From a virus (taxonomy: Duplodnaviria; Heunggongvirae; Uroviricota; Caudoviricetes), in the IMG/VR virus record IMGVR_UViG_2579778650_000023: 51,722 nt of DNA; one strand, given 5' to 3'. Each line of letters opens with the position of its first letter. The first letter of the stretch is position 1. Position numbers and translations under genes: made by a program. Shown piece after piece: positions 1 to 28,125 of this stretch. The notes under the pieces are model-generated. The model did not search any database. It had not been told where the DNA came from and saw nothing but the letters and a program-made list of their open reading frames with translations.

Positions 1-306
1 CAGAACGGTTCAGATAACCTGATACTTATAAATCGTAAAAAAAACCTTTTTTATCAGAAGATAAGAGATAGAGAATGATTGAACTGTTAAGAATTTAGTT
101 AAAATATAAACTATCAAAGTGCATAATTTTACTTTTTTGGTGACCCAGCTCGGACCTTTGATTCAATCTGGCATAGATATTGGGAAGAGATGAAAAAACC
201 GGAAATCTCAAAAAGTGCGAGGAACTAAACCAAGTGTGCTTACAGTACAAAGACAACTATGATAACCTTTGCTAAGTCAGGTTTTACACTATGGAACAGT
301 TAATAT

Positions 307-1128
307 ATGAGTGCTATAGAAAACCAAGAAACAGTTATACAAGCAGTTAATAGTTTACATCCAACAACGTTGTTTCACTTTACTAAAAATGAAGAGGCAT
401 TCTATAGCATTTTAACAGAACTTTATTTTAAACCTTTCCTTGCCCGTGAACGCATAGTCGGAGTAAAAGGAAGAAGAAATTTCGCAGTACCAATGGTTTC
501 ATTCTGTGACATCAAGCTGTCTCAGATTAAAGATCATAGTGAAAAATATGGTGAATTTGGATTTGGGTTAACAAAAGAATGGGCTGAGAAAAATGATCTC
601 CATCCTGTTCTATACATGAATCAAGGCAGTGAATTATTTTCAAAGTATAATAAAAGAATTAGAAAACTAAAGGATGCGTTAATTCCTCTATGGTCGAAAA
701 GGCATATCCCTGATAATAAAGAGCGTAAGTATTTTGAAAGCCTTAAAGAAGAGTACGCTGACCTTTATAATTTATTACGTTATATGAAAAATTATAAAGG
801 AAAATTAGAAAGGACGAACGAAAAACCCATTGAGAATTATATCTACGCTGACGAAAAAGAATGGAGATATGTACCGCATCCATTTGTTGGCGATTTATGG
901 CCTAGCCTAAATTTAGAGCGAGTGGTGGAACCTAACCAGAAGGCCGTCTTAAGTAAAAAGTTCTCTGAATTTGGTATTAGTTTTTCTTTCGATGACATTA
1001 AATATATACTTGTTCCTGATGATAGCCACATTTCCAAATTGATAACTTGCCTTATGAGTATAAGAAATTATGATCCTTATATAATAAGTAAAGTTTTAAC
1101 GATGGATAAGGTAAAACAAGATTTTTAA
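307..1128 (+). CDS. Hypothetical protein, possible Abi-family (AbiGi-like) abortive-infection/defence protein
   Basis: 273-aa ORF, visibly AT-rich and Lys-rich; N-terminal motif TLFHFTK...FYSIL...FKPF resembles Abi-type proteins as I recall them (unverified); convergent with the giant STAND gene. Confidence 0.5.
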   Translation: MSAIENQETVIQAVNSLHPTTLFHFTKNEEAFYSILTELYFKPFLARERIVGVKGRRNFAVPMVSFCDIKLSQIKDHSEKYGEFGFGLTKEWAEKNDLHPVLYMNQGSELFSKYNKRIRKLKDALIPLWSKRHIPDNKERKYFESLKEEYADLYNLLRYMKNYKGKLERTNEKPIENYIYADEKEWRYVPHPFVGDLWPSLNLERVVEPNQKAVLSKKFSEFGISFSFDDIKYILVPDDSHISKLITCLMSIRNYDPYIISKVLTMDKVKQDF

Positions 1129-1603
1129 CACTTCTACATAGAAATTTCATTAATAAACAAGAAATTAGCTTTCTTGAGGACAACTTTACCTAAAGCTGAA
1201 AAGTGCCAATTAGCAAACTTTCATCCCATAAGCTATGATATAGCACTCACTTTATTGATAAATACCGAGGTATTCATGAAAGGTCAGGTCGATATCGAAC
1301 TCCAAAGATTGATACGGGCGCGGTATAACACCGCGGTAGAAAATTGGAGTGAATGGAAATGGTTAGAAATCGGGCATGGCGTCGTCATCATATATCTCGG
1401 TTAAAATCTAAGAGAAAAACATATCGAATTGTGTTGGCTAAAACTGAAAAAGTTGTAGGGAAAATTTACTGCCCCCCTTGTGCTTGTTCTTGTTATTTTT
1501 GTGGTAATCAAAGAATTCATCACGGAGTGAACATTCAAGAGCAACGAGCTTTGCTGCGTTTTACTGATTGACTTATAAAATATTAATCTTTTCGATAATA
1601 AAA

Positions 1604-1622
1604 GGCTCCAATCCTTGGAGCC
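1604..1622 (-). terminator. Rho-independent terminator downstream of the 1587-aa gene
   Basis: Perfect inverted repeat GGCTCCAA-tcc-TTGGAGCC; on the minus strand the hairpin is followed by TTTTATTATCG; lies between convergent genes. Confidence 0.6.
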
Positions 1623-1665
1623 TAAATTGGAAAAACTCTCATTAAAACTATTATTTTCAACTACA

Positions 1666-4600
1666 TCACAGAATATTTTCCCGTGACATATAACCAACAA
1701 CCGATCCTTTCTCTACCAAAAAATCTAATATTACTAAGACCTCTTCTTTCAACTGTTTGGTTCGTCTAATTCTCTCACGCTCAGTGTTGATATACCGCCT
1801 AACCAAACATTCCAAATAATAAACAGTATCATTTTCCAATTTATTTTCCCATAACTTTTTATTAACCGACAATATTCCTGAAAGCCAGGTTATACCTTGA
1901 TTAAGATAGCAACTGGCAATGTTATTCAATGATTTGGCAAGAGAATATACAGTTGAAGGGCAATGACCCATAGTCCTAGATACATCGCAAAAGAATTGAC
2001 TATTGTTATCTTTAAATGTGTGCCAACCATTTGAATTTTCTTTCCATGGAGATTCAGCAAAAAGGTAACTTTTTATAATTTTATCTACATACCAATACCT
2101 ATCTCCATCCTTGCACAAAGTAACCACTTTATCAAAAAACAAATCCCAAACCTTCCAAAATTTGGTGTAAGTATTTAATCTATCTTCGACGAGAATAAAT
2201 TTTTTAAATAACTCTGAAATAGGCTCTGAACCGTTGAAACCTTCAAGAAAAGGTTTTATATAATCAGGAATATCGCTCACGGGCGCATGAAGCGTAAAGT
2301 AGGCAAATCTTTCCAAGAAAGACTGCCGAAGAGCGTAATCAACTCTATCTTCTCGAACACTTGACAATAGGCTTGTAGAAAATCTTTTAACAATTAAGGA
2401 AACCAATTGCTTATGTTCAATATTGACAGTATCAACTGGAATTAATTGGAAAGCCGTGTTCAAAATATGCAGATCAACTTTATCGATACCTCCCAAATCA
2501 TCTATAGATATTTTATTATCGATGACATTTGATATGCAATGCTTATAGTTATTTAAAAACACCTTATTAATATTTATTTTTTTAATGTCATAGTCTGCTT
2601 GACGATAACTTTCATGAATGATTTTTCTTGAAAGGATTACATATTTTGGCTTTAAAATCAAAAAACCAAACAATAGAGACTGCATATCATCAAAATAGTA
2701 TAGCCATAATTTATGAATCACCATACTAGGAAATACTGAGTAGCGCCCACTTGCCATTCCAATAGAGTGGTCATTAAACAGTGTCAAAAGTAATATTGTT
2801 TTTATAGTCTCCCTTTCGACTGGATAATTATGATAAATCACAGGTAAGGCTGAAATTGCCGAGGTTGTTCCATCTAGCACCTGATAATTATAGCCTTCCT
2901 TCAACGGAAGTTTAGAATACGCTAGAACAATATCTTTACAGTATTCTCTCTCTTCATTATTCAGCTGATTAAAATTCTCTAATAGTAATATAGAACAAAC
3001 GTCTGCTGGTATATTACTGTTTAATAGTCGGAAATCTTCATCCTCCTCCTCATTAAGCTTGTTTATTATTTCTTTGGTCTCTTGTATCGCAATTTGCGGA
3101 TTGTCCTCATACATTCCATAATTCTTATAACGTTCATCCTTTTCTCTTTTATAGCTTGCCCATAGCTTCAGCGTCATATACTTCATATGCTCGGAATTTT
3201 TCTTTATTGCTTCCTCACTATATTGCTTTAGTTTTGGGTCAATCTCAGGATTGAATGATATCTCAATCCCTTCATCTTTCTCCTTAGTAGTTATATTCAT
3301 CTTTCGCCGATCCATTCTTGCCAAGCAGAGCCTCCACGTCTTATCGGCTTCAGTTTCTTGAGCTTCATCTGGAAGCTGATTATAGTATTTGTCGAAAATA
3401 TCCCATAGCACTTGTTGCCTTTCTATGGCATCTTTCTCCGTTACATTTTCACTTCTGAAAATTTGATAATGCAAGGCAAGATTTTCAAGATGAGTATTTC
3501 TATGCACATCATCGCAAGCTTTAATTCTATCTTCTTCGTGCAAAGAGTTTCTGTAATCTGCACCGCCAAAGCCATCCCTGAGGGAGATTAATGAACTTTT
3601 ATGTGTTCTGTCTAGAACCATTCGATTCATATCAAAATGGAAGAAATCCTTTGTTTGGAATAGTACTTTAGCTACATTGAATGTCTTCTCAGGGAATGCA
3701 AGTACAATACTAGTAACTACTGCGGAGATAGAAGCTGACTTGGTATTTCTCAACAAAAAGAGAAGCCAACTTTCCAACACTTTCGAGTCTGCATTTTTAA
3801 AATTCTCAAGAAAAATTTTTTCCAATGCCATATGAATTGATGAAAGTAAGTAGGTAGAGACCTGTGTTCCTCGATATGAGCACCACAGACGATTGCATAT
3901 ATATTGCTTTATAAACTTTCCTTCTTCAATAAAGACATCGACTTCTTCAATTTCGTTTTTAGCAAAGCGGGAGTGGGCAAAACATATCGTTGTCTTGTTC
4001 GTAAAATCAAGAATAAAGTCTATTGTTTTTTTGAACTGTGATTGTAGTAACCAATATATAGGAGTCTGATATGGACTTTCTGGATAATAGTCATGATGAG
4101 ACCTAAATAGACCGAACTCATCTTCAATATCCATATGGTGATAACGTTCGCCTTTTTCTTTAAGTGGCCGATACCAGAACAGATCTGCCAATTGTAGAAC
4201 ATATTCCGGGAGAGATACCCAAACCGGATGTGAATCTAAGTCAGTAAGGATTAAGGTCATAAGATCGAAATATGGGGTACCGTGCTCGTTCCACTTATTT
4301 TTTAGAATCTTAACTAAAATCTCTTCCATTTCAGGTTTAATCATGGCCGCCCCATGAAGAATCGTATGCAGAATATTTTTCTCATTATCCCTTCCGGATA
4401 AATAGACATCCTCATCTATAGTCCATTGATAATATTTTAGGGCTATCAAACTAGATAATCGAGTCGTTTCACCCACTTTGTTTCTTTGATTCCACTCTTG
4501 AATCACTGGAAGTATAAAATTAATATTTCTGAACCCAATTTCATCTAAATTTTCATGGATAAATTGGATCACACTCTGCCAACCAGTTCCCTTAGGCTTA

Positions 4601-6429
4601 GTAAGAACATATTTAATGGAAAGTAGATCTGAATTACTTACACCTAACTGTTTAAGCAGATCGTAATCAACGTCCTTGCAAGCAAGCCTCAATAAGAAAG
4701 TAAGTCTTTTTAAAAGATTCTGGTCACTACTAAGTAAATATCGTTTAAAGTAATTAAAAAATATGCCTGAATTGTCGGAAAGAAGGACAGCTACCCATAA
4801 CTCGTCTTTCCAAAATTTTGATATTCCTTCTCCACAGACTATTTCTGCGATAAAAGGCTTTATGGACTGGTCATCTAAAAGTAATCGTTCAGATATCCAA
4901 TTCCGAAAACTACGGCGAACAGGAAGTGATTCTCCTATCTTTTCGAAGAACTCGTTATTGTTCGCTTTACGGATATAATCGACGGAAATTTTCTTTTCTA
5001 ATGCCCATTCCTCATATATATCATGTGTAATGAAGTAACCAGCAGCTTCATAGCCGACAATTCCGTCTTTAACTAACGCATCTAAAATTCCAGTATCACA
5101 TGTCGGAGAGACAAAAAATTGGCCCTCACTAGCCCGCTGAAAAGCAGTCGCTAAGAAACACTGCTCCCGAGAAGGTTTATTTTTGACGACAATCTTATTC
5201 CAGAGCTTTTCTTTGAAGCTCGCATAATCGATGCTTTCACCGGTATAGAACCTCAGATATTCACTTAGATAAAATGGATTTTTGATTAGTTCTAATAATC
5301 GAACATCTTGAGGAAGGCTAAATCCATTATTATCAGATAACTCTATTAGCTCGTCGCGTTCAAGGTTCTTTATTACTAAGTTTCCAGGAGTTATCTTATA
5401 AATATCTATGAAAGCATAGTTCAGATCTGCCAAGTAGTTGTTACGGGTTGTGAAAATAACCTGCCATTTATCCTTTATTAAAACAGTCAGGAATTCTTTA
5501 AAAGGAACGATATTGGTCAATTCTAAAAGCTTTTCAGCAGAATCTACGACTATGACTTTACGTAATTCGTCTTGATGAGCATTAGAGAAATCGGCTAAGC
5601 CATGCGCACCGAATAGCTCATTAATGCTGTCTTTTTTAAACTCACTAGCCTTAAAGACATAGAAAGGAGTGCATTGTTTTTCAGCTTCATAAATTTTTTT
5701 GATAACTGCTGTTTTTCCAACCCCACCTTCTCCGCTGACGATGACAATTTTTTTCTGAACTAGATTCTCATGTAGAAGTTCAATGCAATGTCGTCTGTCA
5801 ATTTCAATACTTCTGTCTTTGAACTCTATATTGGTTTGAATTTCATATAAAACATTTTCTGTGTGCTTGCGCTTTTCTTCTAATAAATCAAAGATGCTTT
5901 CATTAAGGGAGAAGAAATGTTTTGCAATCTTTTCATTCTCAACTATTACAAACGGTGATTCAAAAAAACTAGCAACTCTCCATACTATTTCGATACCCGA
6001 CTCATATGCTTTCTGATCAACTTCAATTTTTATTTTGGGATCGTTACTATTTCCGACAGTTTCAAAATAATTATCAGCGTTCTTATCGTCTTCAGGCTCA
6101 TGAGACTTTCTCCCCTGCCCCCACTCTTGATTAGTATAGAAAATGATTTTACTTAATCCTGGATAAGCCTTTTTGCTTTTCCCAATCATTTCTATAAGAT
6201 CAGCTTTGTTATCCGACAATTTTGTGTCATAGAATTTAGATTGCCAACCGATAAGTTCATTATCTTTGGTTATTGGATTAGTTTCGATACCAGATTGATT
6301 CTTATATCTAAATATACCTGCGGGTATTTTGAATTCTTGACAGAACAATAAGTAGCAAAACCACTCAAAATTATCTTGAGGATTCTCATTAAATTTAGCT
6401 TTAAAGTTATCCCAGTTTGGTTTGACCAT
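1666..6429 (-). CDS. Large STAND-type P-loop NTPase (1587 aa): N-terminal domain of about 215 aa, NTPase core, about 1200-aa C-terminal region; Avs/AVAST-like antiviral candidate
   Basis: Walker A GEGGVGKT, Walker B-like VIVVDSAEK, STAND-like sensor motif VIFTTRNN; very long C-terminal region with no recognisable catalytic motif; AT-rich; AGGGG Shine-Dalgarno about 9 nt upstream of the ATG at 6429. Confidence 0.75.
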   Translation of the reverse strand: MVKPNWDNFKAKFNENPQDNFEWFCYLLFCQEFKIPAGIFRYKNQSGIETNPITKDNELIGWQSKFYDTKLSDNKADLIEMIGKSKKAYPGLSKIIFYTNQEWGQGRKSHEPEDDKNADNYFETVGNSNDPKIKIEVDQKAYESGIEIVWRVASFFESPFVIVENEKIAKHFFSLNESIFDLLEEKRKHTENVLYEIQTNIEFKDRSIEIDRRHCIELLHENLVQKKIVIVSGEGGVGKTAVIKKIYEAEKQCTPFYVFKASEFKKDSINELFGAHGLADFSNAHQDELRKVIVVDSAEKLLELTNIVPFKEFLTVLIKDKWQVIFTTRNNYLADLNYAFIDIYKITPGNLVIKNLERDELIELSDNNGFSLPQDVRLLELIKNPFYLSEYLRFYTGESIDYASFKEKLWNKIVVKNKPSREQCFLATAFQRASEGQFFVSPTCDTGILDALVKDGIVGYEAAGYFITHDIYEEWALEKKISVDYIRKANNNEFFEKIGESLPVRRSFRNWISERLLLDDQSIKPFIAEIVCGEGISKFWKDELWVAVLLSDNSGIFFNYFKRYLLSSDQNLLKRLTFLLRLACKDVDYDLLKQLGVSNSDLLSIKYVLTKPKGTGWQSVIQFIHENLDEIGFRNINFILPVIQEWNQRNKVGETTRLSSLIALKYYQWTIDEDVYLSGRDNEKNILHTILHGAAMIKPEMEEILVKILKNKWNEHGTPYFDLMTLILTDLDSHPVWVSLPEYVLQLADLFWYRPLKEKGERYHHMDIEDEFGLFRSHHDYYPESPYQTPIYWLLQSQFKKTIDFILDFTNKTTICFAHSRFAKNEIEEVDVFIEEGKFIKQYICNRLWCSYRGTQVSTYLLSSIHMALEKIFLENFKNADSKVLESWLLFLLRNTKSASISAVVTSIVLAFPEKTFNVAKVLFQTKDFFHFDMNRMVLDRTHKSSLISLRDGFGGADYRNSLHEEDRIKACDDVHRNTHLENLALHYQIFRSENVTEKDAIERQQVLWDIFDKYYNQLPDEAQETEADKTWRLCLARMDRRKMNITTKEKDEGIEISFNPEIDPKLKQYSEEAIKKNSEHMKYMTLKLWASYKREKDERYKNYGMYEDNPQIAIQETKEIINKLNEEEDEDFRLLNSNIPADVCSILLLENFNQLNNEEREYCKDIVLAYSKLPLKEGYNYQVLDGTTSAISALPVIYHNYPVERETIKTILLLTLFNDHSIGMASGRYSVFPSMVIHKLWLYYFDDMQSLLFGFLILKPKYVILSRKIIHESYRQADYDIKKININKVFLNNYKHCISNVIDNKISIDDLGGIDKVDLHILNTAFQLIPVDTVNIEHKQLVSLIVKRFSTSLLSSVREDRVDYALRQSFLERFAYFTLHAPVSDIPDYIKPFLEGFNGSEPISELFKKFILVEDRLNTYTKFWKVWDLFFDKVVTLCKDGDRYWYVDKIIKSYLFAESPWKENSNGWHTFKDNNSQFFCDVSRTMGHCPSTVYSLAKSLNNIASCYLNQGITWLSGILSVNKKLWENKLENDTVYYLECLVRRYINTERERIRRTKQLKEEVLVILDFLVEKGSVVGYMSRENIL

Positions 6430-6503
6430 TTAATTATTCCCCTATTTTTTGTAAATAACTGCCCCTACACAGAGAAATGCACCCTCGATATCGTACTCAG
6501 CAA

Positions 6504-6929
6504 CTATCTTCTTTCTCCATCAGAGCGCTCACGGTCAATCTTTGTCAGCTGCGCATTGAGTTGATGTCCTGTCATTCCATGTTTGTATGCATTGTATTGC
6601 CAGATCACAAACTGTTGTTTGTACCTCCGGTTCTCTTCCTTAAGCTCTTCGATTTCGCTTTCAAGATTCACAATCCTAGCGGCTGCAATGTTCAAACTAG
6701 CTGGACGCGGATTTTTGGGGCCACGGCCTTTAAGCGCCTCTTTCTTTGTTTGATAGGCAGTCACTATTGCCCCATGTGCATTAAGGGACTGTCTTGACGG
6801 CAACTTTCCAACCAATGGTTCTGCCGCCTCACAAATTACTGACCAGGACAGTTTTGGTTCCTGCCATCCTCGAATTAGATTCACGATGGCGTTAATGTCT
6901 CTATTGTCCAGATGCTTAGCCAAGGCCAC
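6504..6929 (-). CDS. Small protein (141 aa), fourth gene of the recombinase operon; coiled-coil-like C-terminus (ESEIEELKEENRRYKQ)
   Basis: ORF start overlaps the stop of the upstream recombinase gene (translational coupling); function unknown. Confidence 0.5.
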   Translation of the reverse strand: MALAKHLDNRDINAIVNLIRGWQEPKLSWSVICEAAEPLVGKLPSRQSLNAHGAIVTAYQTKKEALKGRGPKNPRPASLNIAAARIVNLESEIEELKEENRRYKQQFVIWQYNAYKHGMTGHQLNAQLTKIDRERSDGERR

Positions 6930-8949
6930 CTCCTAACAAAGTTGTCAAATCATCTAACATCACAGCTTCTTCACTTTCTTTGCCTTTTTGCTTGATGGCC
7001 GCAATAGACGTCTTTGCGACAACACGGCGAAGCTGGCTGAAATCATTGCCCCGGAGCTTAATCTGGGCACCATTTTCAATGTCTGGATTCTCTAAAATAG
7101 CGACTAACTCACGAAGCCGGGTGACAGTTTTCTTGTGGTATTGATACCAGCGATCAGCCCCCATCTCGCCGCGTTCTACCGCTGCATCAGCAATACAAAA
7201 CATTCGTTCCGACTTCACCAAACGTTTCTTAATTCGATCCAATATTTCTGTATCCTCGCCTTTGATACAAACCTGCTCAGTACAATTGACGCAATCTCGG
7301 AACTTCTCGCAAGGGCCCATGGTGTAATCATGCACGCAGTAGCCATACTCCGTCACATGGACTGCGGCATGATCTAACGTATTGAACTCTTGAATAGTCA
7401 CAGGAAGGTGCTTAGCCACATCTCCAGCAGGCCCAAATAGACCTTTTGAGGGATCGAGGCGTTCAGACATGCCAACCAACTCATATTCAGTCATGTGGTT
7501 GTAAGCTCGATTCTGTTTCATATCTGCCCGACCAGACCACTTGGCAATTTCCAAGTTTGAGAGCCCACCACGCTGAGCTATGGTGTTAAGTAGGTGCCGA
7601 GCTTGGTGCGAGGTTAATTTAACCCGTTCACCGTTTTCAGCATGGTAATTATAGCGATCAAAGATACTGGCATGTTTTCCATTCAAAGTCTCCCGAGGCG
7701 TCAGATCATTATTAAAGAAGTTATTGGTTGGTTTATACAATTCAATCGGTATACATCGGCGATTCCCGTGGAACTGATTTACATTAAGTGCAAACAAAGC
7801 ATTGCTGTACTTAATTCCCTTGTCTTTATCAAACCACGGAAAACCATCAGGCAATCGCGCCATAGCATGGCGCCACAGGCTTTTTAGTGTGTGCGAACCA
7901 TCTTCTTGAGCTAACCCTCGATTAAAGAGAGAAGAACGACATTGTTTTTTGGATTTACAAGCAAGACCGAGAGCCATACAAGACTGTTCCATTGTCAACG
8001 GCTCATCATCAGCGACATCAGGACAGTTAGCATGGCGGTAAAATTTATCCGGGTGTATCTCAATCCACTTGGCCAGCTGTCGAGCATTCTCAGATAACAT
8101 TTTGGTTCTAGCGATAGCTGTTTTAGCAACGCCAACCATTACAGTGGGTATCCATTTAATGCCCCCTTCATAGCCTTTACCTGCAAAGAAACGCCAACCA
8201 TAGCGTTCTATATCTTCGCTATCGGTTTCAAACACCTCACAATCTGCAGGAAGTGCTAACACTTCAGAAATGCGCGAAGGAGCAGACATCAGCATAGCAA
8301 ACACCGATGTTGTAAATATGTCTCTTTCATCCATTGGATCGTTTGCAAAAATTTCCGCAAGCGCGTTGAGGGCAATATCACTCGGTAGTTTCTTTTCCCT
8401 ATTTTTTTTAGCCTCTCTGCCTGTTTTGTTTTTGTCCTCTGCACGCCTAATGGGATTAACCCAATTTTGCACAGCACTTGATACAAGTCGATTTTCAACG
8501 ACAAACTTAGCCAGCCGCTCAATCTCTCGGCCACAATGATATGCAGCACCATCAGAGTAGTGCTGCCTTGCCAATTCAGATGCTTCATCCAGTACTGAAA
8601 TCGACAGACCATCAATATTTGCATTTCCATTTACTTGAATTAAAGCCGCCTCAATCGCACGGAGGGCCTTACTTTCATTCTTTGTCCCTGTGGGATGATG
8701 TCCCTGCTGGTAACGAAAATAGGCTTTGGCGAAATCAATGAACGCAGGGTCTTGTACCTCTCCCTGCATAGGTGTTCGCGTAATAATGCCTAGCTTGGCA
8801 AACACTGTTATGTTTGGCCAAACAGGAGCTTCCCAATTCAGATCGGAACCGAATACAATCAATTGTACTCGGCACTTGGATATGAATACTCCAAGGTTTT
8901 GTGCTGCTGTCAGCGTAGCCTTTGGTTTAAACTGGAAAATCTCAGCCAT
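6916..8949 (-). CDS. Tyrosine recombinase-family protein (third of trio, about 677 aa)
   Basis: C-terminal HQARHLL ... NRAYNHMTEYEL motifs resemble the H-x-x-R and catalytic Tyr of integrase-family proteins; start chosen at ATG 8949 with GGGAG Shine-Dalgarno, overlapping the stop of the upstream gene (alternative start 8994). Confidence 0.6.
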   Translation of the reverse strand: MAEIFQFKPKATLTAAQNLGVFISKCRVQLIVFGSDLNWEAPVWPNITVFAKLGIITRTPMQGEVQDPAFIDFAKAYFRYQQGHHPTGTKNESKALRAIEAALIQVNGNANIDGLSISVLDEASELARQHYSDGAAYHCGREIERLAKFVVENRLVSSAVQNWVNPIRRAEDKNKTGREAKKNREKKLPSDIALNALAEIFANDPMDERDIFTTSVFAMLMSAPSRISEVLALPADCEVFETDSEDIERYGWRFFAGKGYEGGIKWIPTVMVGVAKTAIARTKMLSENARQLAKWIEIHPDKFYRHANCPDVADDEPLTMEQSCMALGLACKSKKQCRSSLFNRGLAQEDGSHTLKSLWRHAMARLPDGFPWFDKDKGIKYSNALFALNVNQFHGNRRCIPIELYKPTNNFFNNDLTPRETLNGKHASIFDRYNYHAENGERVKLTSHQARHLLNTIAQRGGLSNLEIAKWSGRADMKQNRAYNHMTEYELVGMSERLDPSKGLFGPAGDVAKHLPVTIQEFNTLDHAAVHVTEYGYCVHDYTMGPCEKFRDCVNCTEQVCIKGEDTEILDRIKKRLVKSERMFCIADAAVERGEMGADRWYQYHKKTVTRLRELVAILENPDIENGAQIKLRGNDFSQLRRVVAKTSIAAIKQKGKESEEAVMLDDLTTLLGGGLG

Positions 8950-10504
8950 TGGCGATTGCTCCCTGTGGACTAAGCTCTTCACGACGTTTTGCACAACGCA
9001 TGATCACATCTGCCACCGCGATAATGCTGCGATCAAGTATGGCAGCAATCTGGATATCGCCGGTTATCTCTTTCACCCGTTCACGCTCGTTGAGCAGCCC
9101 CTGATAGACATCCTCATGGGGGCCATCCAGCCAAGGCTGGAAATGCATGCAGGTGTAGCAAGGAATAGGAACATTGGCACCACAAAAACCATGCTCCCCA
9201 CAAGTACCTACACCATGGCCTATCTCGGTCCTAATGCGACTGGCAGGGTCGTTACCTCGATGCGCGCCCCTCTCTGAATCGACAAGTACCCCGACAAAGG
9301 CCTGGGCGTATGGTGCTAGTTGGAAGCCAACCGCCTCATCAAGCTTTTTCACATGTTCGGGAATGTTCTTGATGTAAACGCCGGCGTTTTGGGTATCCGT
9401 ATGGTCAAGTAGTTCCGCAATCACCAATTCGCCAAATCCTTCCTTGGCAGCTCGTGTGCCCGTGGTATAGCGAAAACGACGAGCATTGATATGTAATAGC
9501 TCACCAGTACGTTCTGACCGGATATCAGATTTTTCTATGATGTACTGGAGTGTGTTGGTTATCTTTGCTGCGGGAATGTGGAGTTTGTCGGTAGCAAACA
9601 GTTGGCGGAATTCATAAGGAGACTGGACGGTAGCTAACACATCAAGATCTGGAAACAGAGGGATTTGCTGTCGGTCATCTTCCTGCAATTCAAACCCCAG
9701 ACGATTCTCAACCATTGCAATTGCATTCTTTGCCTGAGTGTTCAGAATTACCCATAGTTCTGGTGATATCGCAAAGAGCTTGAAGTTTATTCGAAAAGAA
9801 CTGCTGCGCTGCTTGGCTCGCGGCACATTCAAAACATAGAATGGCTCTCCCTTTCCATTTTTACCGCAAAGCACATCGACTGCATGAAGCAGCGAGATCT
9901 GGATGGGTCGTCGTCCTGTATGACTGATGCTAAGTGCCAAAGCCAACTCCGCTATGGTAATTAAGCTCTTTTCATAAGCCCGAACAGCCCCCTCGTTAAA
10001 CGCTGTCAGCTCATTATCCGTCAGAGGCCCTTCTTGAGGATCCTGACGCTTAACCGCATCTCCCTTACGATTACCCTTCAGCCTCCAGCCATCCAACAAA
10101 CTGATCACATCTTTGCTGATACCGGGATAACCAAGCTGGTGCCAAGTTCGAAGAAAGCCACGTATAGTTGCCAGATACCATTCCGTCGCAGGCAATAGTC
10201 TCGCCCGATAATTAATCAATACCGTATCAGTAATTTCTCTCGCATGAGTCTCTCGCAGCATGTGCTGAAACCGCATAATAATGTTCAGAGTATGAGGAGC
10301 AGATTGAGTAGAAGCATAAAATGCTAGCGTGCGTAGGCAGCCATTGAGCCCCTCACCTGACAAGTAATGGTGAATATCTACAAGAGTGGCGTGGGTATTT
10401 TTATCCAATATCCACGATGTATCATATAAGTGAAAGAAGTAGCCATTAGCCCTAGCACAGATTCGCTCGGACACTAATGCCGGTAGGAACTTACTCGTCA
10501 TCAT
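8942..10504 (-). CDS. Tyrosine recombinase-family protein (second of trio, 520 aa)
   Basis: Integrase-like motifs (HTGRRP..., RFRYTTGTRAAK, ...GVYIK); start overlaps the stop of the first recombinase gene. Confidence 0.6.
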   Translation of the reverse strand: MMTSKFLPALVSERICARANGYFFHLYDTSWILDKNTHATLVDIHHYLSGEGLNGCLRTLAFYASTQSAPHTLNIIMRFQHMLRETHAREITDTVLINYRARLLPATEWYLATIRGFLRTWHQLGYPGISKDVISLLDGWRLKGNRKGDAVKRQDPQEGPLTDNELTAFNEGAVRAYEKSLITIAELALALSISHTGRRPIQISLLHAVDVLCGKNGKGEPFYVLNVPRAKQRSSSFRINFKLFAISPELWVILNTQAKNAIAMVENRLGFELQEDDRQQIPLFPDLDVLATVQSPYEFRQLFATDKLHIPAAKITNTLQYIIEKSDIRSERTGELLHINARRFRYTTGTRAAKEGFGELVIAELLDHTDTQNAGVYIKNIPEHVKKLDEAVGFQLAPYAQAFVGVLVDSERGAHRGNDPASRIRTEIGHGVGTCGEHGFCGANVPIPCYTCMHFQPWLDGPHEDVYQGLLNERERVKEITGDIQIAAILDRSIIAVADVIMRCAKRREELSPQGAIANG

Positions 10505-11753
10505 TCTTCATGTCCTTTGGCAAGCGAGTGCCATTACCTTCCTGCAATGCCAAAGCGGCCTCAAACCCTTTTTGCTGAATGAAACGCTTGTTGTAAGTCG
10601 CTGCAGTTCCCGAACCATCTCTCCAACCCATTAAGTAAGAACGGAGCTGCTCTTGGCGTTCCTCGCTGACTTGCTCATTCATGGCATCCATTCTTTCTGA
10701 AAACTTTCGATTCCATGTATGGCGGAACGAATGCCCTGTCGCTGCATACAATTGTGGTGATACAGCCCTGACCACGGAAAAGATTTTATGATATCCCCCT
10801 TTAGAGATAGGGTTTCCAACTGTTGGCCCTAGCTTATAAGTGACAAAGAGGTAGTCATTTTTCTTTGCATTTCGGACTTTCCGGCGATCTTGGATGATAT
10901 AACTATGTAGTTCTTGAACTAGGGATTCAGCCAATGGCAAGAGCCGGTCTCTCGTTTTAGCATGGGGCTGATTGGTTCTAGAATCAGCTAGCTCATCTGC
11001 TCGCCTAAATATACGGATCCTGTTAGTACTAAAATCAATATCTTGTATTCTGATGTTTAACAATTCCCCACCTCGAATACCAAGATAAAACAGAAGTAAG
11101 ATCATCAGCCGATTGCGACGCTGAACATCTATTGAGAAAGGATTTAAATCTGATCCCGGCTTGATAACTTCAAATAGCGTATCCAATTGCACATCATTCA
11201 ATGACCTGTCTTGCCATTCACTGTTTCTGCGCTTTTTCGACGGTCGACGTATCTTTATGTGCTGCAACATTTCATTGATCTGTTCGACAACGCCCGGTTC
11301 TGCCGTCTTTAAAATATGCATTGCATACCAACCTAAATATTTGGCATATGTTGTCAGCCGGGAATGCAATGTTCCGTTATCAACAGTATCGCTACTCGCA
11401 TCTTCCAACCAAGGTGTAGAAGAAGCAACTAACAGCTTCTTTCCCTGCTTGCGCTGAGCAAAATCCCGCAGATCGTCCAGTTCGTAAGGTTTGAAGAAAT
11501 TTTTGGTCAAAAATCGCTGTTCTAGGTCAATGCCACGATTATCTAAGAAGCGTAGCAGCACAACAAGGTTGCTAGCTGCTGCTAGCATAGTTGAAAAAGC
11601 ATCCCCTCTGTTGCGGATTTGGGTTGTTAAAAAAAGAGTCGGGTAATACACGGGAAGGCAAGAAGAACGATCCACCACCATGCAGTATCGCTCGCCACTG
11701 TCCATGACAAATGTTGTAACCTTGTAGTTATCCTTCATGTGCCCATACCCCAT
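10491..11753 (-). CDS. Tyrosine recombinase/integrase (first of trio, about 415-420 aa)
   Basis: LGIRGGELLNIRIQDID (box I Arg) and GHSFRHTW (H-x-x-R) motifs, C-terminal Tyr region; true start may be the internal Met at 11738. Confidence 0.7.
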   Translation of the reverse strand: MGYGHMKDNYKVTTFVMDSGERYCMVVDRSSCLPVYYPTLFLTTQIRNRGDAFSTMLAAASNLVVLLRFLDNRGIDLEQRFLTKNFFKPYELDDLRDFAQRKQGKKLLVASSTPWLEDASSDTVDNGTLHSRLTTYAKYLGWYAMHILKTAEPGVVEQINEMLQHIKIRRPSKKRRNSEWQDRSLNDVQLDTLFEVIKPGSDLNPFSIDVQRRNRLMILLLFYLGIRGGELLNIRIQDIDFSTNRIRIFRRADELADSRTNQPHAKTRDRLLPLAESLVQELHSYIIQDRRKVRNAKKNDYLFVTYKLGPTVGNPISKGGYHKIFSVVRAVSPQLYAATGHSFRHTWNRKFSERMDAMNEQVSEERQEQLRSYLMGWRDGSGTAATYNKRFIQQKGFEAALALQEGNGTRLPKDMKNDDE

Positions 11754-11828
11754 ACACTTTACATAATTGCAAGGTACACAGTATGTTAGGAAGATATCAA
11801 TTACGATTTGACACTTTTGAGACGCGGC

Positions 11829-11857
11829 AAATAAAAAGCCCCTGTATTAACAGGGGC
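11829..11857 (-). terminator. ssb rho-independent terminator
   Basis: Hairpin GCCCCTG-ttaata-CAGGGGC followed by TTTTTATTT on the minus strand, immediately downstream of ssb. Confidence 0.75.
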
Positions 11858-11896
11858 CTGATAGATAATTAATTACATAAACGTCTTAGGTAAATC

Positions 11897-12433
11897 CTAG
11901 AACGGAATGTCATCATCAAAGTCCATCGGCGGCTCGTTAGACGGCGCTGCCGGAGCGGACTGCTGCGGGCGAGACTGCGCGCCGCCGCTGAACTGATTGC
12001 CACCCTGCGGCTGCTGAGGCTGACCCCAACCGCCCTGCGGCTGACCACCACCGATATTACCACCTGCCGGAGCGCCACCACCCTGACGACCACCCAGCAT
12101 CTGCATGGTGCCGCCAACGTTCACCACGACTTCTGTGGTGTAGCGATCCTGGCCGGATTGATCGGTCCATTTGCGGGTACGCAGCTGACCTTCGATATAA
12201 ACCTGAGAACCTTTACGCAGATATTCGCTGGCCACTTCTGCCAGTTTGCCGAACAGCACAACGCGGTGCCATTCAGTCTGTTCTTTCATCTCGCCGGTCG
12301 CTTTATCACGCCAGGATTCGGAAGTAGCCAGCGTAATGTTGGCAACTGCGCCACCATTTGGCATGTAGCGTACTTCCGGGTCCTGACCCAGATTACCAAC
12401 GAGAATAACCTTGTTTACGCCTCTGCTGGCCAT
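11897..12433 (-). CDS. ssb: Single-stranded DNA-binding protein SSB (178 aa)
   Basis: Translation [39 protein letters not shown]... with Gly/Gln-rich tail and C-terminal DFDDDIPF, characteristic of enterobacterial SSB; the true start is internal to the longer six-frame ORF. Confidence 0.95.
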
Positions 12434-12583
12434 GTTCGTGTCTCCTGAAAAAAATCGTTCTGAATAAGTGTAAACGCGCGATTGTACCATTACCAATAGC
12501 GCTTTTACTATGTTGTGACCTCGGTTCCGGGAAACAAACCTGGCCAGACATTGTTACACAACACTCCGGATAATGCATTCCAA

Positions 12584-12603
12584 TACTGTATATTCATTCA
12601 GGT
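12584..12603. promoter_or_regulatory. LexA (SOS) box in the divergent ssb-uvrA control region
   Basis: TACTGTATATTCATTCAGGT (CTGT-N8 with a degenerate right half) between the divergent ssb and uvrA starts; matches the known uvrA operator. Confidence 0.8.
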
Positions 12604-12686
12604 CAATTTGTGTCATAATTAACCGTTTGTGATCGCCGGTAGCACCATGCCACCGGGCAAAAAAGCGTTTAATCCGGGAAAGGTGA

Positions 12687-15509
12687 ATGGATAAGATCGA
12701 AGTTCGGGGCGCCCGCACCCATAATCTCAAAAACATCAACCTCGTTATCCCCCGCGACAAGCTCATTGTCGTGACCGGGCTTTCGGGTTCTGGCAAATCC
12801 TCGCTCGCTTTCGACACCTTATATGCCGAAGGGCAGCGCCGTTACGTTGAATCCCTTTCCGCCTACGCGCGGCAGTTTCTGTCACTGATGGAAAAGCCGG
12901 ACGTCGATCATATTGAGGGGCTTTCTCCTGCCATCTCAATTGAGCAGAAATCGACGTCTCATAACCCGCGTTCTACGGTGGGGACAATCACCGAAATCCA
13001 CGACTATTTGCGTTTGTTGTTCGCCCGCGTCGGCGAACCGCGCTGTCCGGACCACGACGTCCCGCTGGCGGCGCAAACCGTCAGCCAGATGGTGGATAAC
13101 GTGCTGTCGCAGCCGGAAGGCAAGCGTCTGATGCTACTCGCGCCAATCATTAAAGAGCGCAAAGGCGAACACACCAAAACGCTGGAGAACCTGGCAAGCC
13201 AGGGTTACATCCGTGCTCGTATTGATGGCGAAGTCTGCGATCTTTCCGATCCGCCGAAACTGGAACTGCAAAAGAAACACACTATTGAAGTGGTGGTTGA
13301 TCGCTTCAAGGTGCGTGACGATCTTACCCAACGTCTTGCGGAGTCGTTTGAAACCGCGCTGGAGCTTTCCGGTGGTACAGCGGTAGTGGCGGATATGGAC
13401 GACCCGAAAGCGGAAGAGCTGCTGTTCTCCGCCAACTTCGCCTGCCCAATTTGCGGCTACAGTATGCGTGAACTGGAGCCGCGACTGTTTTCGTTTAACA
13501 ACCCGGCAGGTGCCTGCCCAACCTGTGACGGCCTTGGCGTACAGCAATATTTCGATCCTGACCGCGTGATCCAAAACCCCGAGCTGTCACTGGCTGGCGG
13601 TGCGATCCGTGGCTGGGATCGCCGCAACTTCTATTACTTCCAGATGCTGAAATCGCTGGCAGATCACTATAAGTTCGACGTCGAAGCGCCGTGGGGCAGC
13701 CTGAGCGCGAACGTGCATAAAGTGGTGTTGTACGGTTCTGGCAAAGAAAACATTGAATTCAAATACATGAACGATCGTGGCGATACCTCCATCCGTCGTC
13801 ATCCGTTCGAAGGCGTGCTGCACAATATGGAGCGCCGTTATAAAGAGACAGAATCCAGTGCGGTACGTGAAGAATTAGCCAAGTTTATCAGCAATCGCCC
13901 ATGCGCCAGCTGCGAAGGGACGCGTCTGCGTCGGGAAGCGCGCCACGTTTATGTCGAGAATACGCCGCTGCCTGCTATCTCCGACATGAGCATCGGTCAT
14001 GCGATGGAATTCTTCAACAATCTCAAACTAGCTGGTCAGCGGGCGAAGATTGCAGAAAAAATCCTTAAAGAGATCGGCGATCGTCTGAAATTCCTCGTTA
14101 ACGTCGGCCTGAATTACCTGACACTTTCCCGCTCGGCAGAAACACTTTCCGGCGGTGAAGCCCAGCGTATCCGTCTGGCGAGCCAGATTGGTGCGGGCCT
14201 GGTTGGCGTTATGTATGTACTGGACGAGCCGTCTATCGGCCTGCACCAGCGCGATAACGAGCGCCTGTTGGGTACGCTTATCCATCTGCGCGATCTCGGT
14301 AATACCGTGATTGTGGTGGAGCATGACGAAGACGCAATTCGCGCCGCTGACCATGTGATCGATATCGGTCCTGGTGCGGGTGTTCACGGCGGTGAAGTGG
14401 TCGCGGAAGGTCCACTGGAAGCGATTATGGCGGTGCCGGAGTCGTTAACCGGACAGTACATGAGCGGTAAACGCAAGATTGAAGTGCCGAAGAAACGCGT
14501 TCCGGCAAATCCGGAAAAAGTGCTGAAGCTGACAGGCGCACGCGGCAACAACCTGAAGGACGTGACGCTCACGCTGCCAGTCGGTCTGTTTACCTGCATC
14601 ACAGGGGTTTCAGGTTCCGGTAAATCGACGCTGATTAACGACACACTGTTCCCGATTGCCCAACGCCAGTTGAATGGTGCGACCATCGCCGAACCGGCAC
14701 CGTATCGCGATATTCAGGGGCTGGAGCATTTCGATAAAGTGATCGATATCGACCAAAGCCCAATTGGTCGTACTCCACGTTCTAACCCGGCGACCTATAC
14801 CGGCGTGTTTACGCCTGTGCGCGAACTGTTTGCGGGCGTACCGGAATCCCGTGCGCGTGGTTATACGCCAGGACGTTTCAGCTTTAACGTCCGTGGCGGG
14901 CGCTGCGAAGCCTGTCAGGGCGACGGTGTGATCAAAGTAGAGATGCACTTCCTGCCGGATATCTACGTGCCGTGCGATCAGTGTAAAGGTAAACGCTATA
15001 ACCGTGAAACGCTGGAAATTAAGTACAAAGGCAAAACCATCCACGAAGTGCTGGATATGACCATCGAAGAGGCGCGTGAGTTCTTTGATGCCGTACCTGC
15101 ACTGGCGCGTAAGCTGCAAACGTTGATGGACGTTGGCCTGACGTACATTCGCCTGGGGCAGTCCGCAACCACACTTTCTGGTGGTGAAGCCCAGCGCGTG
15201 AAGCTGGCGCGTGAGCTGTCAAAACGCGGCACCGGGCAGACGCTGTATATTCTCGACGAGCCGACCACCGGTCTGCACTTCGCCGATATTCAGCAACTGC
15301 TCGACGTACTGCATAAACTGCGCGATCAGGGCAACACCATTGTGGTGATTGAGCACAATCTCGACGTGATCAAAACCGCTGACTGGATTGTCGACCTGGG
15401 ACCAGAAGGCGGCAGTGGCGGCGGCGAAATCCTCGTCTCCGGTACGCCAGAAACCGTCGCGGAGTGCGAAGCATCACACACGGCACGCTTCCTCAAGCCG
15501 ATGCTGTAA
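12687..15509 (+). CDS. uvrA: Excinuclease ABC subunit A (940 aa)
   Basis: [19 protein letters not shown]..., two ABC ATPase modules ([18 protein letters not shown]; LSGGEAQR signatures), zinc-finger Cys clusters. Confidence 0.97.
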
Positions 15510-16430: not shown

Positions 16431-17348
<918 letters not shown>

Positions 17349-17544
17349 TTAATTTTACGTTTATTATGATGAATCCTCGGCAAATGAGCGAAATTTGATA
17401 GAACATTTATCTGCTGTACGATTTAATGAACTTAATGATACAGCATTACAAAAACAATCGAAGTTTATAAAGATGATTTCTGATTGACCAGCCCCCTACC
17501 CTACAATGGTGATTAATTTTATTACTCGCGATGGAGATGATGAT

Positions 17545-18048
17545 ATGAATATATCATATGTGAATAGCAACAAAACGACATCTTTACCTGTTGAGCTAGA
17601 TGCACTAAATAATAAAGATATCTCTTATGCCAAAGATTTTTCTTATGCCAAAGATTTCTTTTTATACATAGAAACACAGTTAAAAATTGCAAAAGATTTT
17701 TGTAGACCTGGAGAAGAAGTATCAAGTTCTATTGCAAGTAAAGTTTTTCACGCATTTATTGATTTAGTTAACAAAATCAGGGGTAAGAAAGACTTTATGT
17801 ATATTTGCACGCTTTGCTGTTTTGCCGAGGAGGTTAAAGGTGATTATTCTCATTACAGGACCTTTTTATTTGATATTGGTAATCAATATAAGGTTAAACT
17901 TACACAAAGCGGAAAAAAAGAGCTCTCTTTAACTTTAGAATTTAACGATACTATAATTGAATCTCAGAAAGTCACAGGCAATAAGGCAAAGCATATTCTT
18001 GAGGATATAGAAAAATTCTATCGTAACAAACCCGATACTTATTATTAA
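17545..18048 (+). CDS. AT-rich hypothetical protein at the yjbS position between aphA and tyrB (about 167 aa)
   Basis: ORF on the opposite strand to its neighbours; GGAG Shine-Dalgarno before ATG 17545 (the six-frame ORF starts at 17506); AT-rich with an upstream AT-rich region; contains an in-frame 18-bp tandem duplication. Confidence 0.55.
   Translation: MNISYVNSNKTTSLPVELDALNNKDISYAKDFSYAKDFFLYIETQLKIAKDFCRPGEEVSSSIASKVFHAFIDLVNKIRGKKDFMYICTLCCFAEEVKGDYSHYRTFLFDIGNQYKVKLTQSGKKELSLTLEFNDTIIESQKVTGNKAKHILEDIEKFYRNKPDTYY
17623..17658 (+). repeat. In-frame 18-bp tandem direct repeat (2 copies, 17/18 identical) inside the hypothetical ORF
   Basis: tcttatgccaaagatttt / tcttatgccaaagatttc, encoding SYAKDF twice. 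Confidence 0.9.
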
Positions 18049-18269
18049 ATTTAATAATAGTTAGATGTGCAGAAATTATTACTCCACCCAAAAAAACAGG
18101 ATAAGGAATTCCAGATAATTAGGATAAGCTTAACAATAAAAGAACTAATAACGTTTATTATCTCTCACGTAGAACGATGGCATCAAAAAAATCATCTATA
18201 AAGAAAGAGTGAAAGCGACGACAGTTTAATTTCACTGCAGGCTGGGTAGCTCCAGCCTGCTTTCCTGCA

Positions 18270-23788: not shown

Positions 23789-23870
23789 AAAATAATCTAT
23801 TGATTTAACAGCAAAACGCCCCGCGACGGTGCGCAGGGCGTGGTGAATTTGACTACTTTTTGGTGAAAAG

Positions 23871-24863
23871 TTAACGCTTATCCGCCACCAGTTTGAGCGC
23901 GTGTTCCAGCACATTAATGTCTGCACCCGCTTTATGGGCATTTTCACTTAAATAACGCCGCCACTGCCGCGCGCCAGGAATACCCTGGAACAAGCCCAAC
24001 ATATGCCGGGTAATATGGCCGAGATACGTCCCCTGGCTGAGTTCACGCTCAATGTACGGATACATGGCGCGCACTACCGCCACCGGATCGGCATCGGTAT
24101 CCGAGGAACCAAAGATCTCCCGGTCTACTGCCGCCAGAATACCCGGATTCTGATACGCCTCGCGCCCGACCATCACGCCATCCATATGTTGCAGGTGTGC
24201 TTTGGCCTCTTCCAGCGACTTGATACCACCGTTAATCGACATTGTCAGATGCGGAAAGTCACGCTTCAGTTGATACACACGCGGATAATCGAGCGGCGGG
24301 ATTTCACGGTTTTCTTTCGGGCTTAACCCCGAAAGCCAGGCTTTACGTGCGTGGATGATAAACATCTCACACTCGCCTTTGCCGGAAACAGTGTTGATGA
24401 AATCGCAGAGAAATTCATAGCTGTCCTGGTCATCGATGCCAATACGCGTTTTCACCGTCACTGGAATCGACACCACATCGCGCATCGCTTTCACACAGTC
24501 GGCAACCAGCTGCGCATTACCCATCAGACACGCACCAAACATGCCGTTCTGCACCCGGTCAGACGGGCAGCCGACATTCAGGTTGATCTCATCATATCCG
24601 CGCGCTTCTGCCAGCTTTGCACACTGCGCCAGCGCCGCCGGATCGCTACCGCCCAGTTGCAACGCTACCGGATGTTCTTCTTCACTGTACGCCAGATAAT
24701 CACCTTTACCGTGAATAATCGCCCCTGTGGTCACCATTTCGGTATACAGCAACGTATTGCGGGAAAGCAGACGCAAGAAATAGCGGCAATGTCTGTCCGT
24801 CCAGTCGAGCATAGGAGCAATGCTAAACCGAGAATTCCAGTAAACACCAGTTTTTTCAGGCAT
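23871..24863 (-). CDS. dusA: tRNA-dihydrouridine synthase A (about 330 aa; the six-frame ORF allows a start at 24908)
   Basis: [29 protein letters not shown]..., TIM-barrel Dus motifs (NLNVGCPS); the 5' end lies at the prophage junction. Confidence 0.93.
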
Positions 24864-24941
24864 CACGCTGGTTTGATTAATTTTTTGTGTTTCATGATTA
24901 TCGTGCATTTTTGAACATTTCAGGCTATTTTTCTCGCGTTA

Positions 24942-24976
24942 GGTTCCCGCACAGGTTCCCACGTTTTATGGGAACC
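24942..24976. promoter_or_regulatory. GGTTCCC direct/inverted repeats in the dusA-int intergenic region (candidate attL-associated recombinase-binding or operator sites)
   Basis: GGTTCCC at 24942-24948 and 24954-24960, inverted copy GGGAACC at 24970-24976. Confidence 0.4.
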
Positions 24977-24996
24977 CGAAATAACGAGGTCGTGTA

Positions 24997-26094: not shown

Positions 26095-26142
26095 CACTGT
26101 TTATCCATACAGCTAAAAATAATACTGTATACAAACACAGTA
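26091..26142 (+). promoter_or_regulatory. SOS-regulated promoter with two tandem LexA boxes upstream of the dinI-like gene
   Basis: -35 TTGACA (26091-26096); LexA box 1 CTGTttatccatACAG (26097-26112) in the spacer; -10-like TAAAAA; LexA box 2 TACTGTATACAAACACAGTA (26123-26142). Confidence 0.7.
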
Positions 26143-26155
26143 TAGAGGGACTTTT

Positions 26156-26404
26156 ATGCGTATTGAAATCTGCATAGCCAAAGAAAAAATGACTAAAATG
26201 CCAACCGGTGCTGTGGATGCGTTAAAGGAAGAATTAACCCGACGCATCAGTAAACGTTATGACGATGTAGAGGTGATCGTAAAAGCCACCAGCAACGATG
26301 GCCTTTCTGTTACACGCACCGCAGATAAGGATTCTGCAAAAACTTTTGTTCAGGAGACTCTGAAAGATACCTGGGAATCTGCTGACGAGTGGTTTGTTCA
26401 CTAA
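26156..26404 (+). CDS. DinI-like DNA-damage-inducible protein (82 aa)
   Basis: [11 protein letters not shown]...[18 protein letters not shown] closely resembles DinI (MRIEV...ILQETWESADDWFV); GAGGG Shine-Dalgarno. Confidence 0.85.
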
Positions 26405-26815
26405 TTAACACGTAAAATCGGTAACGGCTGGAAATCATTCAATACTCGCACTATCGAAAGTTCGCCAGCCAGCCGCAGCACGTTCTTGCATACGACGTGG
26501 CTGCGGCTTCCAACATTAGACAAATAACTCTTTAAATTGCTTTCAAATTATTTCGTTTGAATGCCAGTAGCAGGAAATCGTTTATATAGGGTTTAGAGGA
26601 TGTCATGGGGAAACTGATTAATGTTAAAATGATTACTCCATTAGATAACCTATATCACCCCCTCCGACAACTCTCGGCGCAATAACCAATTTCGTCAGGA
26701 TTCCTCTGGTTTAAACGGTTCATATGCATAAAAACATTATACTCGCGGTATTTCATCCATTACTGCAGAAGGAAAAATGCGCTGGAAATTATCAAAATCT
26801 CCAGCGTACTAGCAA

Positions 26816-27022
26816 TTAACTGACTAACTCATCTTGAGGAGTAACTACATCTGGTTTTAAGGAAGGCTTGATGAATTTTTTACCGTCATATGACCAGCCA
26901 ATACCAACATCTCCAACACATTTAACTATATCCGCTTTTTCTGACTTAAACTCTGACTTACCATCCCATACAACAAGATTTGTAACGACACCATTTTGTA
27001 CGACTGCATAAATATCGCTCAT
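26816..27022 (-). CDS. Small tail-fibre-associated protein (68 aa), function unknown
   Basis: ATG overlaps the tail fibre stop (TAATG), suggesting translational coupling. Confidence 0.45.
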   Translation of the reverse strand: MSDIYAVVQNGVVTNLVVWDGKSEFKSEKADIVKCVGDVGIGWSYDGKKFIKPSLKPDVVTPQDELVS

Positions 27023-28122: not shown

Positions 28123-28125
28123 GGA

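Follow-up and report, generated by a model that had tools for sequence, protein, structure and literature searches.

Genomic Islands with three Integrases (GInts) were described by Bardaji 2017 (Sci Rep 7:46254, PMC5385486) as islands whose ginABCD operon codes for three predicted integrases together with a small protein, all reported to be essential for excision and integration. According to that study, their cargo starts from the ginD stop codon, their 3' end is short and AT-rich, imperfect direct repeats flank them, and the GInt families are mutually only 24–40% identical. Several mutually distant GInts are placed there at the end of ssb, with an attL that overlaps the end of the gene and leaves its product unaltered, and with repeats given in Table S3 as GTGCCGTTCT, CCGTTCTAAT/CCGTTTTGAAT and CCGTTTTTAATT/CCTTTTTTAATT. 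Here we analyse a locus of this kind in a 51,722-nucleotide stretch of DNA (the window), catalogued as virus record IMGVR_UViG_2579778650_000023 (Caudoviricetes). An annotation made from the sequence alone (the original prediction) had seen in it the mobility module of an integrative island, with three tyrosine recombinases and a small fourth gene. We hold with high confidence that window 1–11905 is a complete GInt, composed of an ssb-proximal ginABCD operon, a cargo of Avs4 and AbiGi genes, and a short AT-rich distal end.

Idola 2023 (Mob DNA 14:7, PMC10214605) separates GInts from the similar SEs (strand-biased circularizing integrative elements; gene order intA-tfp-intB-srap), a family whose four genes encode two catalytic recombinases, a recombinase-fold protein that is non-catalytic, and a small accessory protein. 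A 2026 preprint on genomic-island hitchers does not deal with GInts. The chromosomal position considered here has itself been described: in the E. coli pangenome the yjcB–ssb defence island is counted as integration hotspot 39 (PMC11728103; ISME J 2024, which cites Hochhauser 2023). The present element shares with that hotspot the same surroundings (pdeC-yjcB on one side, ssb-uvrA on the other) and the combination of defence cargo with mobility genes; the published example is an 18-kb island with Detocs and a dGTPase, whereas Avs4 and AbiGi are found here. The observation is therefore real but already described, as the family, the hotspot and the defence gene are all published.

Extent and insertion site of the element

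The ends of the element come from a three-junction alignment of the window with two E. coli genomes. In K-12 the site is empty and yjcB lies directly after ssb; E. coli E8 has the same DNA as the window, at 99.9% identity, with yjcB-pdeC-soxS on its far side. The alignment delimits the element as window 1–11905, a net insertion of 11,897 bp, with a GC fraction of 0.396 as against 0.547 in the ssb-uvrA flank, a contrast that speaks for a foreign origin. The first base of the window coincides with the distal repeat, and the chromosomal yjcB flank lies just outside. Comparison with E. coli lacking the insertion, which had been proposed as a check on the original prediction, thus yielded both the exact ends and the target, and it is the whole of 1–11905 – rather than 6504–11753, which is the mobility operon only – that constitutes the element.

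On the ssb strand, the empty K-12 site reads ...GACATTCCGTTCTGATTTGTCATT..., the ssb-side junction reads ...GACATTCCGTTCTAG followed by element sequence beginning GATTTACCTAAGAC..., and at the distal junction ...GGTTATCTGAACCGTTCTGA gives way to TTTGTCATT.... The flanking direct repeats have the form CCGTTCT(A/G), being CCGTTCTAG on the ssb side and CCGTTCTGA at the distal end; the empty site in K-12 also reads CCGTTCTGA. The exchange is within the 7-bp CCGTTCT, that is, in the last codons of ssb. Upon insertion the ssb stop codon changes from TGA to TAG, and the SSB product, of 178 residues, is unaltered (100% identical). The original claim that the island targets the site downstream of ssb holds in so far as insertion is site-specific at ssb, but it takes place inside the last codons and the stop of the gene, not beyond its terminator.

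The features of the two ends are as follows.
Window 1–8, no strand assigned: distal junction (attR in the published convention), with the repeat copy CAGAACGG (gin strand: CCGTTCTG); defined by comparison with K-12 and E8.
Window 8–306, no strand assigned: AT-rich non-coding 3' end, GC fraction 0.327, with the right-end motif GTATCAGGTTATCTGAAC at 8–25.
Window 11757–11779, minus strand: motif GTGTACCTTG-N-TGTAAAG just upstream of ginA, echoing the ACCT...TGTAAA pattern of the element end.
Window 11829–11859 (terminator scan: 11859..11836), minus strand: intrinsic-terminator hairpin, carried by the element and now ending the ssb transcript.
Window 11873–11896, minus strand: ginA-proximal terminus, GATTTACCTAAGAC..TGTAA, with conserved blocks ACCT-AGA and TGTAAA whose spacing from the ssb stop codon is constant over 17 loci.
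Window 11897–11905, no strand assigned: ssb-side junction (attL), with the repeat CCGTTCTAG on the ssb strand; it overlaps the last two sense codons of ssb (P, F) and supplies the TAG.

The terminus at 11873–11896 is probably, to judge by its conserved blocks, the core-type binding site. The similar motif at 11757–11779 is kept in 17 family members, among which protein identity has fallen to about 50%, and it may serve for recombinase binding, as a promoter element or in both roles; a sigma-70 promoter scan found no promoter upstream of ginA on the gin strand. The Rfam scan of 1–12700 matched no family.

The hairpin had been taken for the native terminator of ssb, a role that we reject: it lies inside the inserted DNA and is missing from the empty site of K-12, where a different terminator stands downstream of ssb, by yjcB. 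Its stem is retained, with differing sequences, in most related elements. What the insertion leaves behind is hence a preserved SSB, a replaced stop codon and a new terminator supplied by the element. The roughly 80-bp gap noted between the hairpin and the first recombinase gene is correct (82 bp to the start of the longest ginA open reading frame), although the hairpin does not belong to ssb.

The ssb stop codon lies at 11897–11899, with the divergent uvrA next, at 12687; directly downstream of ssb, on the minus strand, the open reading frame listing of the window contains four consecutive, co-oriented, overlapping frames.
Window 10491–11753, minus strand: ginA, 420 residues from the first ATG (415 from the PGAP start at 11738).
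Window 8942–10504, minus strand: ginB, 520 residues.
Window 6916–8949, minus strand: ginC, 677 residues from the ATG that PGAP also uses (8949); a GTG start would give 6916–8994 and 692 residues.
Window 6504–6929, minus strand: ginD, 141 residues (139 from the PGAP start at 6923).

With the PGAP starts of an identical E. coli copy, the stop/start overlaps of ginA/B, ginB/C and ginC/D are 14, 8 and 8 bp; 20 related loci have this gene order as well. The original description of three overlapping integrase-family frames and a small fourth frame beside ssb, together with their spacing, was accurate, since the frames, the overlaps and the 82-bp distance to the hairpin were all recovered. PGAP labels the four genes simply as 'integrase' and 'hypothetical protein'; taken together, they delimit an exact, portable defence island of 11.9 kb.

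The Gin proteins and related recombinase systems

The GinC accession, taken from the PGAP annotation of an identical copy, is WP_000807724.1, which stands in the list of ginC/ginD orthologues of Idola 2023 (Additional file 10, PMC10214605) and not in that paper's tfp/srap list; WP_001062124.1, a GinD, appears in the same ginC/ginD list as the reference for a neighbouring allele. Gene order and target agree with this placement. Like the published ssb examples from P. syringae UMAF0158, Ralstonia PSI07, Shewanella baltica and Opitutus terrae, the element sits at the ssb 3' end with no change to the protein; like published GInts in general, it has the four-gene operon at one end, cargo right after ginD, an AT-rich distal end and direct repeats, whose core CCGTTCT is shared with the published ssb GInts. 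It differs from them in its small size (11.9 kb, with Avs4 and AbiGi as cargo) and in a GinC which, in this clade, retains the first Arg and an HxxR/W/Y series.

Among the three large proteins, GinA alone lies above the Pfam integrase threshold (PF00589, E=9.8e-15); it also has XerA/XerC/XerD-like NCBIfam matches, and its R222, H336xxR339, W372 and Y382 are invariant. GinB matches the NCBIfam model NF041502, 'site-specific integrase', at 1.3e-198. PF00589 is its top Pfam match in 10 of 10 family members, at sub-threshold scores (E 1e-4 to 0.013) over the C-terminal catalytic part, and its invariant residues are R198/R199, R342xxR345 (with Arg in place of His), H368 and Y377. The original prediction of a tyrosine recombinase trio is accordingly secured by Pfam for GinA, while GinB and GinC are very divergent members with sub-threshold matches only.

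GinC matches no curated family, although 23 of 28 homologues give weak PF00589 matches, the best at 1.5e-6. A profile was built from 113 representatives, which are 29–54% identical to the window protein; in it R451 and Y483 never vary, and conservation is at least 90% at R226, K258, K265, H448, H452 and W471. Searched against the PDB, this profile gave a single match, the tyrosine recombinase XerA (4a8e, E=0.069), in which GinC R226 pairs with the box I Arg and H448xxR451...W471...Y483 with HxxR...H...Y; we take the paired residues to be the putative catalytic ones. Searches of solved structures with GinB, with GinC and with a shallower GinC profile returned nothing useful. Comparison of GinA, GinB and GinC with one another by hhalign, from shallow alignments with a Neff of about 2, was non-significant (E 0.19–0.32), though the aligned stretches did pair the expected motifs. 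Because candidate residues of the form R...(H/R)xxR...(H/W)...Y are conserved in GinA, GinB and GinC alike, none of the three lacks the R-H-R-Y-type residues expected of a tyrosine recombinase.

Published accounts describe GinC as lacking the first Arg (Bardaji 2017, PMC5385486) or the RHRY motif (Idola 2023, PMC10214605). Either the published alignments differ from ours or this clade keeps an active third recombinase. Beyond the putative catalytic Tyr, both divergent proteins carry a conserved cluster – C538, H540, C547, C553, C556 and C561 within GinC residues 536–564, and C435, C441, C449, C452 and H454 within GinB residues 433–463 – that looks like a zinc-binding module; we found no mention of it in the portions of the GInt and SE papers that we consulted.

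The predicted structure of GinD comprises an N-terminal four-helix domain resembling a helix-turn-helix, followed by a long helix (residues 75–114). A structural match to Tn7, which inserts downstream of glmS under the direction of TnsD, covers only a helical domain of 52 residues, a likeness that may be generic to helix-turn-helix folds; with its DDE transposase and TnsC/TnsD, Tn7 is enzymologically unrelated to tyrosine recombinases.

The original prediction had compared the operon with Tn554-like transposons and the RIT and TRT recombinase trios. Three adjacent, overlapping genes of the tyrosine-recombinase family followed by a small gene reminiscent of TnpC do recall such elements, and GinA has a very weak NCBIfam match (E=0.019) to GmtY, the 'gamma-mobile-trio' recombinase. 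RIT elements have long inverted repeats and usually no cargo, and are not known to have a conserved fourth gene. The present element, with its strictly conserved fourth gene, variable cargo, short direct repeats and weak inverted repeat, is set apart by description from RIT and TRT, and its three recombinase-like genes set it apart in the same way from Tn554, described from Staphylococcus and Enterococcus with two recombinases and TnpC (Idola 2023, PMC10214605). No significant NCBIfam or Pfam match to Tn554 or to a trio family was obtained for any Gin protein. An origin in these groups is extremely improbable, and the label was not borne out: the family is that of the GInts (ginABCD, PMC5385486).

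It is also highly improbable, to our mind, that the element is an SE, for all that the two layouts are alike: both place, at one end of the cargo, an ordinary recombinase, a pair of larger recombinase-like proteins and a small protein with a coiled coil. SE-6283 and SE-6945 (Idola 2023) resemble the present element in their four core genes at one end, recombinase-driven circles and target-site specificity; GinC keeps RHRY-type residues, as IntB does, and three identical or near-identical copies in one strain (see below) would fit a copy-out mechanism. SEs are moreover called 'putatively non-mobilizable', which fits a cargo in which no conjugation or mobilisation genes were seen; a copy also appears to be retained at the donor site. 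What distinguishes SEs is the non-catalytic Tfp in second position, together with distinct protein clusters, host range and target sites. Here the second protein has 520 residues and an R...RxxR...H...Y series, whereas Tfp is non-catalytic and at least 550 residues long; the accessions fall only in the ginC/ginD list, and the 3' end of ssb is a documented GInt target. Frequency points the same way, in that SEs are given as present in 0.3% of Escherichia replicons against 7.5% for ginC-ginD blocks (PMC10214605), and a related operon occurs in 7% of E. coli genomes here.

Several points weigh against reading the element as a GInt, or at least temper that reading. Membership rests on a published PSI-BLAST catalogue, gene order and a shared target, and excision or a circular form is not demonstrable from sequence. 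The similarity of GinB and GinC to the Pfam integrase model is sub-threshold throughout, and the AlphaFold2 model of GinC (from a 28-sequence alignment) has a mean predicted local distance difference test (pLDDT) score of 56, with the catalytic half below 50 – a quality so poor that we left it out of fold searches. The residues reported as lacking in published GinC are conserved in this clade, which is a difference of detail. Lastly, the terminal inverted repeat is weak. The terminal inverted repeats of SEs are reported to be imperfect, 13–19 bp long (motifs C/C') and placed on either side of a 6-bp spacer (PMC10214605), and members of the present family conserve ACCT at the left end and AGGT at the right; since the score of the pairwise inverted repeat of the present element is reached by 423 of 2000 shuffles, we do not claim such a repeat from this element alone.

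Distribution and movement between ssb genes

Of 5426 complete E. coli genomes, 381 (about 7%) contain a related operon, at 376 chromosomal and 32 plasmid places; together with the empty site of K-12, this bears out the expectation that the operon is not a core feature of the locus. A cross-species scan, with one genome per species, returned 24 loci, and the order ssb-ginA-ginB-ginC-ginD is kept in 21 of them, all from other Gammaproteobacteria: Enterobacterales, Idiomarina, Alishewanella, Psychrobacter, Halothiobacillus, Marinospirillum, Endozoicomonas and Ignatzschineria. The other three comprise a locus cut off before ginA, one in Aeromonas piscicola without an upstream ssb match, and a deleted remnant in Rouxiella.

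All intact relatives conserve a ginD-type fourth gene, and their cargo varies. Their left ends repeat the arrangement seen in the window, with ACCT-AGA and TGTAAA blocks, a hairpin and a second ACCTT...TGTAAA block just before ginA. Their right ends, where identifiable, finish with AGGT-N(7–9)-AAC and then the repeat that matches the ssb end of the host itself; in Psychrobacter, for example, the repeat of the element is CCTTTTT, as is the end of the host ssb.

Some of these loci call for separate remark. In Rouxiella aceris (L026, 7805–8592) an internal deletion fuses ginA codons 1–68 to ginC codons 615–677 and leaves ginD intact; in Candidatus Pantoea bathycoeliae (L022, one of the 21 syntenic loci) the operon is pseudogenised by frameshifts. 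The loci titled Martelella alba (L006) and Collinsella (L005, a metagenome-assembled genome) carry uvrA-ssb-gin DNA of enterobacterial type, with about 84–90% protein identity, and their labels – an alphaproteobacterium and an actinobacterium – most likely reflect contamination or mis-binning, not real host range.

Plasmids provide a second class of target. The gin-operon query matches 39 PLSDB plasmids, 27 of them conjugative, and in the four plasmid copies inspected (three IncF-type, one IncC) the operon stands directly behind the plasmid's own ssb; the three IncF-type copies adjoin psiB/parB/DUF905 genes. The junctions seen in the window recur at two plasmid ssb genes, and the empty plasmid site, when reconstructed, is found uninterrupted in another plasmid at 100% identity. 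Across different ssb genes the insertion is thus precise and orientation-specific, lying within the CCGTTCT of the 3' end.

E. coli EC0430 carries the element three times, after the ssb of its chromosome and after those of two plasmids, pEC0430-1 and pEC0430-2. Over 11,905 bp the copy on the chromosome does not differ from that on pEC0430-1 (100.000% identity), evidence of a very recent duplication of the element within the strain. In the pEC0430-2 copy there are 6 mismatches, numerous single-base gaps (47 gap openings) and frameshifts; the gaps and frameshifts may be real decay or read errors.

These copies bear on one further alternative, namely that the element is a decaying remnant, fixed in place, with recombinase genes that have lost their function. 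Decayed relatives do exist, as the Rouxiella ginA-ginC fusion, the Pantoea bathycoeliae pseudogenes and the pEC0430-2 frameshifts attest. In the window, though, all four open reading frames are intact, both ends are complete and the candidate catalytic residues are invariant, and in EC0430 identical 11.9-kb copies occupy two different ssb genes of a single strain. We find it scarcely credible, on this evidence, that the element is such a remnant.

For a complete GInt, the published work (Bardaji 2017) suggests how movement would proceed. GinA, GinB and GinC, assisted by GinD – a small accessory protein that probably binds DNA – would recombine attL with attR to release a circle, which would then integrate into attB, the conserved 3' end of any ssb gene. 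The circular junction expected for the present element is ...GGTTATCTGAACCGTTCT(A/G)GGATTTACC..., and the empty attB would read ...ATTCCGTTCTGATTTGTC.... The target appears to be the DNA for the conserved C-terminal tip of SSB (...DDDIPF), and since this tip is conserved, the element could enter both chromosomal and plasmid ssb genes across a broad range of hosts. Conjugative plasmids could in turn ferry it between cells.

Retention of the donor copy in EC0430 fits, without proving, the replicative or 'no empty site' behaviour that is suspected for some GInts and has been shown for SEs. We tentatively propose – as a possibility, and one that we consider somewhat less than even – that the ssb-GInt clade is a specialised carrier of anti-phage genes, which would move in a donor-retaining, copy-out-like manner among ssb paralogues, including those of conjugative IncF and IncC plasmids, with GinC and the other large proteins catalytically competent. 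If this is true, the triple copy in EC0430 would be its natural demonstration.

None of this amounts to a new system. The results extend a published one, among other things by naturally occurring copies that give evidence of a full-length GInt's movement between the ssb genes of chromosomes and of conjugative plasmids. Two further points may concern specialists: the catalytic-type residues of GinC, contrary to published statements, and a clade cargo that is nearly all defence. The main value is for annotation: by the rule that ginABCD comes right after ssb and that a CCGTTCT repeat stands at either end, island ends and cargo could be delimited automatically in many Gammaproteobacteria.

Cargo and the remainder of the window

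The defence-like cargo foreseen in the original prediction is confirmed by NCBIfam and PADLOC, and consists of two genes.
Window 307–1128, plus strand: AbiGi-family gene, 273 residues (PADLOC AbiGi, E=3.5e-45; PGAP annotation).
Window 1666–6429, minus strand: Avs4 gene, encoding an AVAST type 4 STAND NTPase/nuclease of 1587 residues.

Avs4 is identified by NCBIfam NF041815 at 2058.9 bits (cut-off 1500; E=0) and by PADLOC (Avs4, E=0); its gene runs in the same direction as the gin operon and begins 75 bp past the end of ginD. The AbiGi-family protein also matches the NCBIfam AbiGI model at 1.3e-12, below that model's cut-off. In the relatives, the cargo adjacent to ginD is almost all anti-phage: DRT3 (DRT3a/b), PDC-S28, PDC-S06 and SngA, as well as type I and type III restriction-modification genes and an E1-E2 (CBASS-type) gene. 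In one relative (L012) the first cargo protein, of 1272 residues (10656–14474), has no PADLOC match and could be an undescribed defence candidate.

Elsewhere in the window, a prophage extends from about 23870 to 40000 and beyond, next to dusA. Its tyrosine integrase lies at about 24998–26095, and after it come DinI-like, baseplate, tape-measure, tail-sheath and head genes. At least 80% of window 15500–40000 is present in only 90 of the 5426 E. coli genomes. Between aphA and tyrB, at 17500–18050, there is a low-GC stretch (0.348 for 17001–18000) with two small hypothetical open reading frames, one of them annotated as frameshifted in a matching genome; E8 has an IS3-family element at this place.

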